4,404 nucleotides of DNA, from IMG/VR virus record IMGVR_UViG_2582580934_000001. The stretch is one strand, 5' to 3'. Source of the stretch: a virus. Its lineage: Duplodnaviria > Heunggongvirae > Uroviricota > Caudoviricetes. Of this stretch, positions 1-4,404 are shown in pieces. The notes beneath the pieces are model-generated. The model was given only the letters and a program-made list of their open reading frames with translations, ran no database searches and was not told the DNA's origin. The position numbers were made by a program, and so were the translations under genes. Every line of letters starts with the position of its first letter. The first letter of the stretch is position 1.

Positions 1-480
1 AAATCCGAAACTGCAGCGGCATCATCGAAGAACGCGGCGAAAACCTCAGAAACGAATGCAGCTAACAGCGCACAGGCGGCAGCGACCTCACAGACTGCAT
101 CGGCAAACTCCGCGACAGCAGCCAAAAAATCAGAAACCAACGCGAAAAATAGCGAGACAGCCGCAAAGACGAGCGAAACCAACGCAAAGTCCAGCCAGAC
201 GGCAGCGAAGACCAGCGAAACGAATGCCAAAGCCAGTGAAACTGCGGCGAAAAGCAGTCAGGATGCAGCGGCTCAAAGCGAGAGTGCCGCAGCCAGTTCT
301 GCAAGCGCGGCGGCTGCTTCTGCCACTGCATCAGCTAACAGTCAAAAAGCAGCAAAAACCAGTGAAACCAACGCAAAGGTGAGCGAAACAGCGGCTGCGA
401 ACTCAGCGAAAGCATCGGCAGCAAGCCAGACGGCAGCTAAAGCAAGCGAAGATGCAGCCAGAGAGTACGCAAGCCAGGCT
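1..480 (+). repeat. Degenerate in-frame tandem repeats encoding SETNA(K)/SETAA(K) units (tail-fibre shaft repeat region)
   Basis: SETNA codon blocks at 46-60, 130-144, 172-186, 214-228 and 361-375; SETAA blocks at 4-18, 151-165, 235-249 and 382-396. The A/C/G-rich low-complexity DNA yields long spurious ORFs in the other frames (56..382 +, 62..331 -). Confidence 0.75.
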
Positions 481-1800
481 GCGGAGCCGTATAAATATGT
501 CTTACAGCCGCTGCCTGATGTGTGGATACCATTTAACGATTCGCTGGATATGATTACGGGCTTTTCGCCGTCATATAAAAAAATTGTTATTGGTGACGAT
601 GAAATAACGATGCCTGGCGACAAGATTGTTAAGTTTAAACGTGCATCGAAAGCAACCTATATTAACAAATCTGGTGTGCTGACAGAGGCTGCCATTGACG
701 AGCCACGATTTGAACGTGATGGCCTGCTTATTGAGGGGCAAAGAACAAACTACATGCTCAATTCGGAAAGCCCTGCCAGTTGGGGGCGATCGTCAAATAT
801 GGATGTGCCCGAAACAGGGACGGATAATTTTGGTTTTACCTATGGAAAGTTTGTCTGCAACGATTCTCTGATTGGGCAAACCTCAGCCATTAATATGGCA
901 TCAATTGCTGCAACAAAGTCAGTTGATGTCTCAGGCGATAATAAACACGTGACAACCTCATGTCGTTTTAAAACAGAACTGCAGGTAAGGTTGCGTATCC
1001 GGTTTGATAAATATGACGGTAGCGCAACAACTTTTCTTGGTGATGCGTATATTGATACACAAACGCTTGAAATTAATATGACAGGCGGTGCTGCCTCAAG
1101 GATTACAGCGAGAGTCAGAAAGGACGAAGCTACCGGATGGATTTTTGCAGAGGCAACAATTCAGGCAATTGATGGGGAGTTAAAAATAGGCTCTCAGATA
1201 CAGTATTCTCCTAAGCAGAGCGGGGCAACCGTATCTGGTGACTATATTTATCTGGCCACCCCACAAGTAGAAGATGGGCCTTGTGTATCATCTTTTATTA
1301 TATCAGGAGCGACGGCGGCGACCCGCGCAAGCGATATAGTTACAGTTCCAATTAAGAATAATCTTTATAATCTTCCTTTTACGGTTCTTTGTGAGGTACA
1401 TAAGAACTGGTATAAAACGCCAAATGCAGCGCCACGTGTTTTTGATACCGGCGGTCATCAAACCGGAGCGGCTATTATTCTTGGCTTCGGTCGTTCAACA
1501 GATTACGACGGATTTCCTTATTGCGATATTGGAGGAGCTAACAGACGGGTAAACGAAAACGCATCGCTTGAAAAAATGGTTATGGGGATGCGTGTAAAGT
1601 CAGAGCAGTCTACGTGCTCAGTAAGTAACGGGCATATATCCAGCGAAACAAAAACCACATGGTCCTGTATTCAGAACACCGCAATTATCCGTATTGGAGG
1701 CCAGACTACAGCCGGGTTACGTCATTTATTTGGTCATGTCAGGAATTTCAGAATATGGCACAAGGCATTGACTGATGCTCAGGTGGGGGAGTCAATCTAA
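1..1800 (+). CDS. Phage side tail fibre protein, 5'-partial (enters from upstream of window); Ala/Ser/Thr-rich repeat shaft followed by a lower-GC distal region with a LamG/concanavalin-like jelly-roll tip
   Basis: Frame 1 is open from nt 1 to the TAA at 1798-1800; the GTG at 379 in the ORF track is an internal codon of this longer frame. Nt 1-400 translate to KSETAAASSKNAAKTSETNA...KTSETNAKVSETAAAN with nine SET(N/A)A units, typical of Stf-type prophage fibre shafts. The last ~170 aa carry a LamG-like motif series (PFTVLCEVHKNW, RVFDTGG, AIILGFG, IRIGGQ, FGHVRNFRIWHKALTDAQV). Confidence 0.9.
   Translation, partial: KSETAAASSKNAAKTSETNAANSAQAAATSQTASANSATAAKKSETNAKNSETAAKTSETNAKSSQTAAKTSETNAKASETAAKSSQDAAAQSESAAASSASAAAASATASANSQKAAKTSETNAKVSETAAANSAKASAASQTAAKASEDAAREYASQAAEPYKYVLQPLPDVWIPFNDSLDMITGFSPSYKKIVIGDDEITMPGDKIVKFKRASKATYINKSGVLTEAAIDEPRFERDGLLIEGQRTNYMLNSESPASWGRSSNMDVPETGTDNFGFTYGKFVCNDSLIGQTSAINMASIAATKSVDVSGDNKHVTTSCRFKTELQVRLRIRFDKYDGSATTFLGDAYIDTQTLEINMTGGAASRITARVRKDEATGWIFAEATIQAIDGELKIGSQIQYSPKQSGATVSGDYIYLATPQVEDGPCVSSFIISGATAATRASDIVTVPIKNNLYNLPFTVLCEVHKNWYKTPNAAPRVFDTGGHQTGAAIILGFGRSTDYDGFPYCDIGGANRRVNENASLEKMVMGMRVKSEQSTCSVSNGHISSETKTTWSCIQNTAIIRIGGQTTAGLRHLFGHVRNFRIWHKALTDAQVGESI
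1786..1791 (+). promoter_or_regulatory. Shine-Dalgarno-like GGGGAG for the 1800 ORF, embedded in the end of the fibre gene
   Basis: GGGGAG at 1786-1791, 8 nt before the ATG at 1800; the ATG overlaps the fibre stop codon (TAATG), which suggests translational coupling. Confidence 0.5.
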
Positions 1801-2081
1801 TGAAAGATTTAACACTCAAATTTGAAGACAGGGCCGACTTTTCGGCCTTTATGGAGAGTATTGGCTATTATGATGACGAGTCGATGCAGGATGATATTCT
1901 TATCGACGTGATAGGTAACGTGTACAAAGAAACCGGAGAACTGACTGAAGATGGCGAACCGGTATGTGTTAAGGAAGACGGATATTTTGTAAACGTGCGC
2001 ATCATTAATGATTCGCAAATATCGTCATTATTCGATGAATACGTGGTTGCTGTTGAGCATCAACTTCGTGGCTGGATGTGA
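1800..2081 (+). CDS. Hypothetical small acidic protein (93 aa), unknown function, co-transcribed with the fibre genes
   Basis: ATG at 1800 with an upstream SD and 1-nt stop/start overlap with the fibre gene; stop TGA 2079-2081 lies 9 nt before the next gene. Protein is rich in D/E (MKDLTLKFEDRADFSAFMESIGYYDDESMQDD...). No family recognised from memory. Confidence 0.6.
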   Translation: MKDLTLKFEDRADFSAFMESIGYYDDESMQDDILIDVIGNVYKETGELTEDGEPVCVKEDGYFVNVRIINDSQISSLFDEYVVAVEHQLRGWM

Positions 2082-2084
2082 GGA
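2081..2084 (+). promoter_or_regulatory. Shine-Dalgarno AGGA for the 2091 ORF
   Basis: GAGGAAG at 2080-2086, with AGGA at 2081-2084 and a 6-nt spacer to the ATG at 2091. Confidence 0.55.
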
Positions 2085-2090
2085 AGAAAA

Positions 2091-3131
2091 ATGGCTACAT
2101 CGACAGTAATTCCTGATGACATCAAAACGCTAAAATCCGACGTTAGCAAATTAAAAAACGATCAAGGAAGCTACGCAACAAAATCTTATGTAGACAATAA
2201 AACAACATGGAATGGTTATTGCAATGTAATCTATGATCAAAAAACATTGCCAACAACTGGAACTATATTCAGCGGTAAGCTGCATTTGTCAAATAAGACT
2301 GGTGAAACGGAAAACGCTTATAGTGACATATATACCAGAAAAAATATTGATGGTACTAAAGATACAATGACGAGGATCGTCACACATAACGGGACAAAAG
2401 GTATCTTTTGGGACTTTAGTGATCTTTACGGAGGAACTTTAATTTTTCCAGGCAGTGATGGTTACCTTAAGATGGGGAACTGTCTCATGTCGTATGGTGT
2501 GCGGGGAAGTAACGCGCTTATTAAGTTTGATAATACAGACTCATTGCAGATCAAATATGCTAATCACGGGTCGACCATGACACTAAACACGCAAGGTACG
2601 GCGTATTCTGGTGTGTCGACGTTATTATGGGGAAATTCCAGCCGTCCTGTTGTTTATGAAGTCGGTGTTGATGGTGGCGCTTATATGTTCTATGCGCAGA
2701 AAAATACCGATAACACCTATATGTTAAGCGTTAATGGTGCATGTCATGCCACCGCATTTAACCAGCATTCCGACCGGGATCTGAAAGACAACATTCAGGT
2801 GATCGATAATGCAACCGACCGCATCCGTAAAATGAACGGCTATACATACACGCTTAAAGAAAACGGTATGCCCTATGCTGGTGTCATTGCACAGGAAGCT
2901 CTGGAAGCAATCCCAGAAGTTGTAGGTTCCGCAATGAAATATCAGGACGGTGCGAGCGGATCGGAAGGTGAAGAAGGTGAACGTTATTACACAGTAGATT
3001 ATTCTGGTGTTACTGGCTTGCTTGTTCAGGTAGCCAGAGAGTCAGACGACAGAATAACAGCACTGGAAGAAGAAAACGCAGAATTAAGACAAAGATTATC
3101 TGTAATTGAGGCGGCGCTTGCGTCTAAATAA
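2091..3131 (+). CDS. Tail fibre / tailspike-like protein (346 aa) with C-terminal intramolecular chaperone auto-processing domain (peptidase S74 type)
   Basis: ATG at 2091 with a good SD; stop TAA 3129-3131. Residues 227-346 read SDRDLKDNIQVID...RIRKMNGYTYTLKENGMPYAGVIAQEALEAIPEVV...YYTVDYSGVTGLLVQVARE...ALEEENAELRQRL, which matches the conserved pattern of the endosialidase / T5 pb1-type chaperone domain (SD-R-LK, G-IAQE-P-VV, DYS-L-V, terminal coiled coil). The N-terminal ~226 aa are AT-rich and Gly/Thr/Asn/Tyr-rich, as expected for a beta-rich receptor-binding part. Confidence 0.88.
   Translation: MATSTVIPDDIKTLKSDVSKLKNDQGSYATKSYVDNKTTWNGYCNVIYDQKTLPTTGTIFSGKLHLSNKTGETENAYSDIYTRKNIDGTKDTMTRIVTHNGTKGIFWDFSDLYGGTLIFPGSDGYLKMGNCLMSYGVRGSNALIKFDNTDSLQIKYANHGSTMTLNTQGTAYSGVSTLLWGNSSRPVVYEVGVDGGAYMFYAQKNTDNTYMLSVNGACHATAFNQHSDRDLKDNIQVIDNATDRIRKMNGYTYTLKENGMPYAGVIAQEALEAIPEVVGSAMKYQDGASGSEGEEGERYYTVDYSGVTGLLVQVARESDDRITALEEENAELRQRLSVIEAALASK
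2769..3128 (+). other. Domain: intramolecular chaperone / autoproteolytic C-terminal domain; predicted cleavage Ser codon at 2769-2771 (Ser227 of the 2091 ORF)
   Basis: HSDRDLKDN motif; the Ser in the SD-R-LK context is the established self-cleavage residue in characterised S74 domains. Assignment is by motif recall, not by search. Confidence 0.7.
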
Positions 3132-3137
3132 TATTAA

Positions 3138-3160
3138 GGGGCCGAGCGCCCCGTTTTATT
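3138..3160 (+). terminator. Rho-independent terminator ending the fibre gene cluster
   Basis: GGGGC (3138-3142), loop CGAGC, GCCCC (3148-3152), followed by GTTTTATT (3153-3160), 7 nt after the stop of the 2091 ORF. Confidence 0.7.
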
Positions 3161-3173
3161 GGGTAGGATGAAA

Positions 3174-3467
3174 ATGGATATAACACCTTTCCTTCATGCG
3201 CTTTGTGCTGTGGCTGCGCAGCTACTGATTGGTCTTTTTACCGGGAACTGGGCTTACGGGGCGATAGCCGGTTGTACGTTCTTCATTGCGCGTGAACACA
3301 CCCAGGCAGAATATCGCTGGATCGAAATGTTCGGGCATGGCAAGCGAATGAATATGCCGTGGTGGGGCGGTTTTGATACACGTGCATGGGATGTGGCAAG
3401 CCTGATGGATTTTGCTGTGCCGGTGGTGGCGTGTCTGCTGGTCTGGCTGTTGGTTAATCGTGGGTGA
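3174..3467 (+). CDS. Hypothetical small membrane protein (~97 aa from ATG 3174; in-frame alternative starts at ATG 3168 and TTG 3159), two predicted hydrophobic helices
   Basis: AGGA at 3165-3168 lies 5 nt before the ATG at 3174; stop TGA 3465-3467. Hydrophobic stretches FLHALCAVAAQLLIGLFTGNWAYGAIAGCTFFIA and ASLMDFAVPVVACLLVWLLV. GC is about 55%, unlike the AT-rich genes upstream. No family recognised. Confidence 0.5.
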   Translation: MDITPFLHALCAVAAQLLIGLFTGNWAYGAIAGCTFFIAREHTQAEYRWIEMFGHGKRMNMPWWGGFDTRAWDVASLMDFAVPVVACLLVWLLVNRG

Positions 3468-3477
3468 AAAAAGGTGA

Positions 3478-3606
3478 GCTGTATATGCAACGGAGGAAGA
3501 AACCCCGTTGCTGGAAGCCTGGAAAAAGTATCGGATGCTGCTGAACCGTGTTGATACATCAACTGCACCTGATATTGAGTGGCCTACGAACCCTGTCAGG
3601 GAGTAA
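3478..3606 (+). pseudogene. tfa: Fossil 3' end of a tail fibre assembly (Tfa) gene; only ~42 C-terminal codons remain and there is no start codon
   Basis: Frame 1 between TGA 3475-3477 and TAA 3604-3606 translates [42 protein letters not shown]. As I recall it, the phage lambda Tfa C-terminus is ...[36 protein letters not shown], a near match. Upstream frames are closed, and the unrelated 3174..3467 ORF sits in another frame. Confidence 0.75.
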
Positions 3607-3669
3607 TCATTGGGATTATGCCGCAGAACGTCTTAAGTAATCATTGGGATTATGCCGCAGAAACGTTGT
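3602..3669. repeat. Tandem direct duplication, 2 x 34 bp (first 27 nt identical), starting inside the tfa stop codon
   Basis: 3602-3635 is AGTAATCATTGGGATTATGCCGCAGAACGTCTTA and 3636-3669 is AGTAATCATTGGGATTATGCCGCAGAAACGTTGT. Confidence 0.85.
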
Positions 3670-3688
3670 ATGCAATAACGTTCTGCGG
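3655..3688. repeat. Inverted repeat / hairpin: 12-bp stem with one bulged A and a 9-nt loop; no following T-tract
   Basis: CCGCAGAAACGTT (3655-3667) pairs with AACGTTCTGCGG (3677-3688). The copy-1 sequence CCGCAGAACGT (3621-3631) is perfectly complementary to 3678-3688, giving an alternative pairing partner. A second 7-bp hairpin lies at 3696-3715 (ATGCACT / AGTGCAT). Confidence 0.6.
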
Positions 3689-3852: not shown

Positions 3853-4404
3853 CTAATTGGGTGATGACAAATCCTGTGTATGGGTGTTTCCCTTTGTGCG
3901 TGCGTTGATGCTGGTAACGGTGAACGTCATGATGAACACAACCGCGAATAAGACGACAATCGTCGGAGCTGGTGCACTGTCGATAAAAAAGGACAACCAG
4001 ACACCAGTCATTGACACTATTACCGATATGCCAATCGCCAGTAGGAGCGCAATATGAAAGCGTTGTGTCAGGAGTACCGCAATGGCGCCAGGCGCAATGA
4101 GCAGAGAAATGGAGAGAATGATACCTACCGCTTTCAGCGTCGCCACAATGGTCAGAGAGACCATGCACAGCAGCCCATAATGCAGACATCTCGTATGCAA
4201 ACCGCTTACCTGCGCCTGTTGATAATCAAAGCTGAACAGCAAAAAATCCCGCCATTTTACGCTAATAACAAGTGTAACCAGCCCGGCAATAATCACCGTC
4301 TGGATTATATCGCCGATGGTTACCCCGAGCATGTCGCCGAAAAGAATATGGTCAAGATGTACGTCTGGTTTGACTGCAATATACAAGATCAGACCTGCGG
4401 CAAA
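3853..4404 (-). CDS. sitD: ABC-3 family divalent-metal (Mn/Fe) ABC transporter permease, SitD-like; 3' portion only, N-terminus lies beyond the window edge
   Basis: Minus-strand frame is open from nt 4404 down to stop TAG at 3855-3853. Translation ...LFGDMLGVTIGDIIQTVIIAGLVTLVISVKWRDFLLFSFDYQQAQVSGL...AVGIILSISLLIAPGAIAVLLTQRFH...FIDSAPAPTIVVLFAVVFIM aligns with the ZnuB/MntB/SitCD permease pattern (LFGDLLAV...LSxTISPDLAxxxG...xVGxLLxxSLLIxPAAxA...SGPxIVL). The sitD name is contextual (last permease of an operon next to prophage genes) and the symbol is less certain than the family. Confidence 0.8.
   Translation of the reverse strand, partial: FAAGLILYIAVKPDVHLDHILFGDMLGVTIGDIIQTVIIAGLVTLVISVKWRDFLLFSFDYQQAQVSGLHTRCLHYGLLCMVSLTIVATLKAVGIILSISLLIAPGAIAVLLTQRFHIALLLAIGISVIVSMTGVWLSFFIDSAPAPTIVVLFAVVFIMTFTVTSINARTKGNTHTQDLSSPN

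Follow-up and report, generated by a model that had tools for sequence, protein, structure and literature searches.

A short S74 fibre gene of a lambdoid prophage as the probable distal subunit of a composite side tail fibre

The DNA analysed here, a stretch of 4,404 bases (the window) from the tailed-virus record IMGVR_UViG_2582580934_000001 of IMG/VR, matches chromosomes of Escherichia coli at up to 99.9% identity and covers the end of a lambdoid prophage of the phage-21 type where the tail-fibre genes lie, with sitABCD adjoining. We were particularly interested in an open reading frame (ORF) of 346 amino acids (aa) which follows the side tail fibre gene (stf) and a gene for a stand-alone 93-aa protein, and which ends in an S74 intramolecular chaperone domain (Table 1). 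The wider context is given by strain CB209, in which tape measure and, further on, gpJ and lom precede the gene for a 728-aa Stf, followed by a 93-aa hypothetical protein and a 346-aa “tail fiber domain-containing protein”; then come a 97-aa hypothetical protein, a pseudogene remnant of tfa, sitDCBA on the opposite strand, uspF and ompN. Tritos, 2G7b, HannyBb and PhiR63_1 have the entire fibre region in common with the window at ~96% identity, while phage 21 shows the CB209 layout without the 346-aa gene.

Table 1. Features of the window, with positions, strands and remarks.
Feature	Position	Strand	Remark
Stf, C-terminal 599 codons, proposed proximal fibre, ending in ...HLFGHVRNFRIWHKALTDAQVGESI	1..1800	+	frame open from base 1
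93-aa stand-alone protein, candidate adaptor or chaperone	1800..2081	+	always between proximal and distal fibre genes
Shine-Dalgarno GAGGAAG of the S74 fibre gene	2080..2086	+	overlaps TGA stop of the 93-aa gene
Short distal tail fibre precursor (proposed), 346 aa, 38.0 kDa	2091..3131	+	ATG start, intact ORF
N-terminal tag MATSTVIPDDIKTLK, 15 residues, proposed docking element	2091..2135	+	conserved in 18 distal proteins
Short coiled-coil stalk, residues 10-26	2118..2168	+	AlphaFold2 helix; profile match; heptad number variable in homologues
Beta-rich mature body (~45-226), presumed receptor-binding part	2223..2768	+	D1 ~45-118; D2 ~150-225
Ser227 codon (TCC), predicted scissile and nucleophilic serine	2769..2771	+	nearly invariant; counterpart of T5 pb1 Ser1264
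Lys232 codon, predicted general base of Ser-Lys pair	2784..2786	+	nearly invariant; five residues past Ser
C-terminal intramolecular chaperone (S74), residues 227-346, 13.2 kDa	2769..3128	+	release after trimer folding predicted
GC-rich perfect hairpin GGGGCCGAGCGCCCC, terminator-like	3138-3152	.	T-rich runs on both strands; consensus match only
97-aa predicted membrane protein, PHROG 1443 (unknown function)	3174-3467 (TTG start at 3159 in ORF list)	+	
Tfa remnant, final 39 codons of lambda-type tail fibre assembly protein	3487-3606	+	no start codon; RefSeq: pseudogene
3′ part of sitD, iron/manganese ABC transporter permease	3853-4404	-	Pfam ABC-3, E 5e-40

The window opens inside stf, in whose product a shaft of Ala/Ser/Thr-rich repeats is followed by a GTA head-spike-fibre-like domain and then by a lectin-like end. 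RefSeq lists this protein as a 728-aa “prophage tail fiber N-terminal domain-containing protein”, and it matches PHROG 1419. The middle domain was recognized both by the NCBIfam model GTA_spike_fiber (residues 243-443, E 2e-13) and by similarity to the head spike fibre of RcGTA (PDB 6tb9, E 1e-7); for the end of the protein, Pfam gave a weak match to Laminin_G_3. As to the shaft itself, bases 1-400 (+ strand) encode an Ala/Ser/Thr/Lys-rich repeat, KSETAAASSKNAAKTSETNAANSAQ..., with a strong AT skew (0.64) and 55% GC. The copy number of this repeat differs among related genomes, several matches beginning only at base 151, and the ORFs of 89-108 aa found here in other frames or on the other strand (56-382, 62-331, 130-276 and 342-623) are probably by-products of it.

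The start of the 93-aa gene overlaps the stf stop codon (TAATG), and the ribosome-binding site of the 346-aa ORF in turn overlaps the stop codon of the 93-aa gene. This tight packing, its translational-coupling signals and the terminator-like hairpin after the fibre gene suggest that the 346-aa protein would be co-expressed with Stf from the late operon. We conclude that the ORF is a real gene and not a chance reading frame, because the profile of PHROG 4563 (“tail fiber protein”) spans the whole protein (1-346 of 346 positions, E 7e-209), orthologues of the same length are present in the phage records Tritos, 2G7b, PhiR11_1, PhiR46_1, ESCO3 and JenP1, and the gene is found in 616-717 of 5426 complete E. 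coli genomes (11-13%), mostly at 90-95% identity. It is annotated as intact among the genome rows listed. A competing gene on the opposite strand was considered and rejected, the sole overlapping ORF there coding for 44 aa. The gene is a common one and, through its PHROG family, is on record as a tail fibre, so the kind of object is known; current names of such genes are “hypothetical”, “endosialidase chaperone” and “tail fiber domain-containing”.

Could the gene nonetheless be a decayed remnant, that is, the truncated 3′ end of a longer fibre gene left without present function in a defective prophage? A true remnant, that of tfa with its 39 codons, does lie just downstream, and the C-terminal half of the 346-aa protein resembles the ends of much longer fibres. 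The intact orthologues of identical length argue in the other direction, since they reside in deposited phage genomes that include members of the virulent genus Nonagvirus, as do the full-length PHROG match and the conservation in E. coli noted above. The gene moreover has its own start codon, ribosome-binding site and a conserved N-terminal tag (see below). We therefore regard decay as very improbable.

What is directly seen at the C-terminus is an S74 domain with its serine and lysine. Residues 227-278 align with positions 1-57 of 58 of the Pfam profile Peptidase_S74 (PF13884; E 6.3e-14, 52.4 bits with a cut-off of 22), which confirms the assignment made for the last 120 aa in an earlier sequence-only reading of this DNA. 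That reading had also expected about 226 residues ahead of the cleavage serine and had predicted its codon; indeed, exactly 226 residues precede Ser227, whose TCC codon lies at the predicted place, begins the motif SDRDLK and corresponds to position 1 of the profile. Both Ser227 and Lys232 are nearly invariant in alignments of 17 and of 59 homologues. Cleavage would yield a mature protein of 24.8 kDa (residues 1-226) and a released fragment of 13.2 kDa (residues 227-346). When compared with the PDB, the family profile matched the C-terminus of S16 gp37 (6f45, E 2e-10) and the ICA domain of MyRF (7dc3, E 2e-8); T5 pb1 and K1F endoNF gave no sequence match in these PDB searches.

A close mechanistic parallel is the chaperone domain of T5 pb1 and of the K1F endosialidase, an S74 domain which likewise stands at the C-terminus and has its scissile Ser followed, five residues on, by a Lys (PMC4690869). 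In pb1, Lys1269 activates the scissile Ser1264, and cutting of the Thr1263-Ser1264 bond, which is blocked by an S1264A exchange, frees the chaperone; the trimer must have folded correctly before it is cleaved, and the receptor-binding tip then becomes exposed (PMC4690869). In T5, folding-sensor residues upstream of the cleavage site, Arg1250 and Asp1239, are supplied by a neighbouring chain; in our family R185, invariant in the 59-sequence alignment, is a possible counterpart of Arg1250. A clear difference is that pb1, at 1396 aa, brings its own tail-attachment N-terminus.

Upstream of the chaperone, the mature part combines a short stalk with a beta-rich body. [quoted passage not shown] The S74 domain ends the protein, following a body (residues 45-225) of predicted strands. 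In the stalk, I11, L14, V18 and L21 form two heptads by inspection, and homologues carry one to several extra heptad blocks inserted at this place. The family profile here matches trimeric coiled coils, namely those of Lpp, P22 gp26 and T4 fibritin. Within the body, the segment LWGNSSRPVVYEVG...FYAQKNTDNTY...VNG matches a repeat found in gp34, the proximal long tail fibre of T4 (profile comparison, E 7e-5). This gp34-like motif lies in D2, the module which the protein has in common with long-fibre tips: tblastn showed that, from about residue 123-198 on, the protein is 43-60% identical to long fibres of T5-like, rV5-like and mEp lambdoid phages at their C-terminal tips. This identity, the predicted secondary structure and the profile matches to coiled coils and to the gp34 repeat all argue for a trimeric-fibre character of the protein. 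The small receptor-binding knob envisaged by the sequence-only reading was thus right as to size, with a mature part of only 226 aa, but underrated its build, as two beta-rich modules are more than a simple knob.

The first of these modules, D1, exists in at least two alleles, residues 26-125 (window 2166-2465) carrying the difference. Over this region, the window allele is identical to PhiR11_1 and to JenP1 of Nonagvirus at 23-25 of 25 positions per block, as compared to 8-15 of 25 (about 40%) for Tritos. Residues 200-325, on the other hand, are identical between the window and Tritos, and the final 21 residues differ at one position. Since the D1 region follows PhiR11_1 and JenP1 while the later part follows Tritos, the gene is a recombinant mosaic, as expected of a receptor-binding part. 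The near-identity of residues 26-125 between a prophage and JenP1 (24-25 of 25 residues per block), set against only ~40% to the lambdoid Tritos, also points to fibre modules having recently been traded between temperate lambdoid phages and Nonagvirus, a genus of virulent phages.

An alternative that these features speak to is that the protein never enters the virion and serves as an assembly chaperone for the long fibre in trans. Some records are indeed so named, for example PeterMerian, ESCO3 and JK16 (“putative lateral tail fiber chaperone”, “endosialidase chaperone”), and the shortest homologues have only ~100 residues ahead of their S74 domain. The names, however, appear to derive from the title of the Pfam domain, and the S74 domain of T5 works on its own chain before cutting itself off (PMC4690869). 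A body (residues 45-226) that is beta-rich, diverged between alleles and homologous to real fibre tips is likewise hard to reconcile with a trans-acting chaperone, as are Stf genes of the phage 21 type that occur without any S74 fibre gene. We consider this alternative unlikely.

If the protein is a fibre subunit, how would it be attached? Pfam and NCBIfam scans of the fibre gave no attachment domain; indeed, the fibre body and the 93-aa protein drew no match from either database, S74 being the sole Pfam match of the fibre. The N-terminus had been described from sequence as an amphipathic stretch lacking a recognizable attachment domain. While the helix is there (residues 10-26) and no catalogued domain accounts for it, comparison revealed what the description had overlooked, namely a tiny conserved element that we propose to be an attachment tag. 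Among 18 distal proteins, which represent five phage lineages, M1, T5, I7, D10, I11, L14 and K15 are invariant (18/18) and P8 is present in 17/18, giving the consensus M-[AV]-T-x-T-[VIN]-I-P-x-D-I-[TK]-x-L-K. Beyond the tag, the mature parts of these proteins span 98-463 aa and are often unrelated. Illustrative examples are the 234-aa protein of PhiR49_1, which retains the tag despite an overall identity of 31%, a 98-aa protein of KarlBarth (Dhillonvirus) that has the tag and no S74 domain, and the 576-aa fibre of L6jm.

A tblastn search with residues 1-37 detected the tag in 60 phage records. As this search missed IrisVonRoten, which has the tag, it is weak for distant similarity. At the loci inspected, the tagged gene proved to stand next to the small gene, and coordinates show the same for several further records.

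The tag is part of a larger, directly observable pattern. In ~20 loci from five lineages whose tail tips differ, the order of genes is the same: a long fibre with a GTA-spike-fibre or lectin-like end, a gene for 85-93 aa belonging to one family and the tagged distal gene, each directly behind the one before. Such cassettes are found in lambdoids (CB209, Tritos, PhiR46_1, PhiR49_1, PhiR11_1, IdasGreatGrand and PhiR55_1), in Nonagvirus (ESCO3, JenP1 and one metagenomic contig), in Drexlerviridae (swan01, PeterMerian and three contigs), in Dhillonvirus (KarlBarth) and in Tequintavirus (IrisVonRoten and L6jm). The long fibre has the C-terminal sequence ...RIGGQT..G.RHLFGH[IV]RN[FL]R[IV]WH..L[TS]D... 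in all opened loci, being present in 14 listed proximal fibres plus those of KarlBarth, L6jm and nimi, whereas its N-terminal, tail-proximal end varies by lineage (MAVQISGVLKDG..., MAIRLQGILVDG..., MAIYRTGQASMD... or MAITTKIIVQQI...). In Drexlerviridae, moreover, the cassette is not adjacent to the J gene. The only constant companions of the tag are hence the C-terminal region of the long fibre and the small protein, which argues that the tag would dock there rather than on lineage-specific tail proteins.

Taken with the domain analysis, this pattern leads us to propose, with a probability of roughly 0.7, that the side tail fibre is composite and has the 346-aa protein as its distal, exchangeable subunit, docked by the tag on the end of Stf and/or the 93-aa protein. 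The comparison thereby supports the earlier idea of a short second fibre held on the primary fibre by a very short N-terminal element, through tag, gene order and the case of IrisVonRoten described next. The arrangement turns out, however, to be far less unusual than that reading had assumed.

An excellent comparison is provided by IrisVonRoten (Bas32, Tequintavirus), to whose genes gp22-gp23-gp24 the cassette is homologous, as judged from sequence: the C-terminal 571 aa of gp22 share 55% identity with the Stf of the window, gp23 and the 93-aa protein share 39%, and gp24 starts with the same tag (MVTKTVIPTDITKLK) and ends with an S74 chaperone domain. The two systems thus agree in the three-gene order, the fibre end, the small gene, the tag and the S74 end. 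AlphaFold-Multimer models attach gp24 to the proximal fibre, from which a galectin-like domain protrudes C-terminally that may be an additional receptor-binding domain (10.1101/2024.09.12.612763). There are differences, too. IrisVonRoten is a T5-like virulent phage, while the window derives from a temperate lambdoid, and gp24 is a protein of 574 aa (463 mature), described as T-shaped, with a Gp12-like RBD1 and a T5-like RBD2, as compared to a mature part of 226 aa here. Using hhalign, the chaperone domain alone aligned between our family and gp24 (columns 239-352 versus gp24 460-571), the tag being seen by inspection. On this basis, we dropped the notion that the window protein might be a shortened T-shaped fibre whose T5-like RBD2 is that of gp24. 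Only tag and chaperone domain are common to both, so the cargo between these two elements has been swapped.

A different way to place the protein on the virion would be as an independent short fibre that sits on the tail tip itself, be it on J, on distal tail proteins or on the tube, and not on Stf or the 93-aa protein. Many phages have separate short fibres, and our case for a contact with Stf is made from sequence. In addition, weak densities at the tail tip of DT57C were read by the authors as a possibly folded-back LtfB (PMC10713586). Yet the tag stays constant across five lineages in which fibre N-termini as well as size and position of the J gene differ, and nothing but the C-terminal domain of the fibre and the small protein accompanies it throughout. 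Direct binding to the tail tip thus seems improbable to us.

Docking of a second fibre on the first has precedents among other phages. The first paper on the BASEL collection noted that the lateral fibres of small siphoviruses can comprise two or more proteins. For DT57C, genetics indicate that LtfB is attached through LtfA, and the first 45 residues of LtfB match gp15 of phiEco32 (PMC4728585). LtfA/LtfB of DT57C and DT571/2 and gp14/gp15 of phiEco32 resemble the cassette in having a second S74 fibre whose docking was inferred to occur via a conserved N-terminus of ~45 aa (PMC4728585, PMC10713586). The second fibre protein of this type shows no homology to tail proteins, and the two fibres recognize different O-antigens (PMC4728585, PMC10713586). 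These systems differ from the cassette in gene order, no small protein having been described between the fibre genes, and in that LtfA ends in an S74 domain where Stf ends in a lectin-like one. None of the 60 records found with residues 1-37 is DT57C- or phiEco32-like, which is a weak test given that IrisVonRoten was missed as well.

Further likenesses are found in class TC7 of the RBPseg atlas, which comprises fibres with a coiled-coil N-terminus and an S74 C-terminus (PMC12143355). Our protein, by sequence, has this same combination; the atlas paper discusses neither tag nor cassette (PMC12143355). We did not find the 15-residue tag, the small constant protein or the lambdoid-prophage cassette stated in the BASEL, DT57C or RBPseg papers. 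With Stf-Tfa of lambda, finally, the locus has in common the position after J and lom, an N-terminal Stf domain (phage_tail_N in relatives) and an accessory role in adsorption. In contrast, the lambda tip needs the separate chaperone Tfa, of which a 39-codon remnant is present here and no intact gene was found in the window. In place of lambda's Tfa-dependent tip, the fibre of the window ends in the lectin-like domain, the 93-aa protein and the S74 fibre.

From these parallels, we infer attachment, trimerization and cleavage as follows. Three chains of the distal protein would assemble, nucleated by the C-terminal S74 intramolecular chaperone. Once the beta-rich body has folded, each chain would cut itself at Ser227, with Lys232 as the base, freeing a 13-kDa fragment and leaving a mature subunit of ~25 kDa. 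In the mature trimer, the 15-residue tag would lead into a coiled coil of two heptads and then into two beta-rich modules. The tag, perhaps together with the start of the coiled coil, would plug into the primary fibre at its distal end, formed by the lectin-like region of Stf and/or the 93-aa protein. Each side fibre would as a result display two binding surfaces, the lectin-like domain of Stf and the tip of the S74 fibre. By analogy with T5-like, Drexlerviridae and lambda side fibres, the most likely receptor of this tip, used for reversible adsorption, is a variable glycan of the cell surface such as O-antigen.

Several observations weigh against such a composite fibre. Phage 21 and several relatives have the same kind of Stf and a 92-aa gene but no distal fibre, and in rV5-like phages, too, fibre end and small protein are present while a tagged gene is missing. 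The components of the socket, therefore, would work without a distal protein. For IrisVonRoten, the partner of gp24 is given inconsistently, as gp22 in the figure legend and once as gp23 in the text (10.1101/2024.09.12.612763). Moreover, some tagged S74 proteins (five loci) are only 224-234 aa long, which leaves 98-115 mature residues for tag, coiled coil and a very small tip; a mature part of ~100 aa is small for a receptor-binding tip.

The phages without a tagged gene also bear on the 93-aa protein, whose role cannot be limited to holding the distal fibre if phage 21 and rV5-like phages keep it regardless. Possibly it caps or chaperones the lectin-like end and doubles as socket. We searched for fusions of the 93-aa domain to a fibre by comparing its profile to 1.84 billion representatives; this gave no evidence of a fusion, as the only long matches are PKD- or TPR-repeat proteins with many weak stretches. 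Specifically, eight very long repeat proteins matched with 3-11 stretches each, and of six that were scanned, four proved to be PKD-repeat proteins and one a TPR-repeat protein. We take these multi-stretch matches as repeat artefacts, although a remote kinship of the central beta-hairpin to PKD-like domains is possible.

A bolder proposition, which we put forward only tentatively and consider doubtful, is that the tag, the 85-93-aa protein and the lectin-like Stf end constitute a universal plug and socket, through which unrelated tips have been swapped across lambdoids and four lineages of virulent siphoviruses. If so, swaps would leave the rest of the tail untouched and might bring in S74 fibres with 98-463 mature residues or even, as in KarlBarth, a tip without S74. 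The small protein would then conceivably be a dedicated adaptor in what may be a portable docking standard not described as such.

Downstream of the cassette, the hairpin GGGGCCGAGCGCCCC sits between the fibre gene and the gene for the 97-aa membrane protein; in phage 21, PhiR49_1 and PhiR55_1, the membrane gene begins ~10-15 nucleotides (nt) past the upstream gene and no such hairpin is present. The 97-aa protein, with two transmembrane segments according to the phage 21 annotation, is encoded 3′ of the fibre cassette in lambdoids. Because its gene is absent from the cassettes of Nonagvirus, Drexlerviridae and Tequintavirus, it lies outside the fibre module; it may be a moron or exclusion gene. 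The tfa remnant that follows suggests that the present cassette took the place of an earlier Stf-Tfa module. In the spacer between this remnant and sitD (window about 3600-3670), the window has ~31-34 nt more than CB209, which looks like a short tandem duplication since 31 nt of CB209 are covered by both of two BLAST pieces. Lastly, the sitDCBA operon lies directly past the tail-fibre module both here and in the phage 21 genome, and therefore appears to be phage-borne cargo.

For annotation, genes of this type can be interpreted as encoding the distal subunit of a fibre cassette of three genes, which about one-eighth of complete E. coli genomes contain. Should the tag suffice for docking, it would offer a very small handle by which new receptor-binding tips could be fitted onto lambda-like particles, and if the cassette truly works as plug and socket, it would amount to a portable docking standard usable for retargeting lambda-based particles. 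For the phages themselves, side tail fibres help set which E. coli strains a temperate phage adsorbs to, and with this, where cargo such as sitABCD travels.

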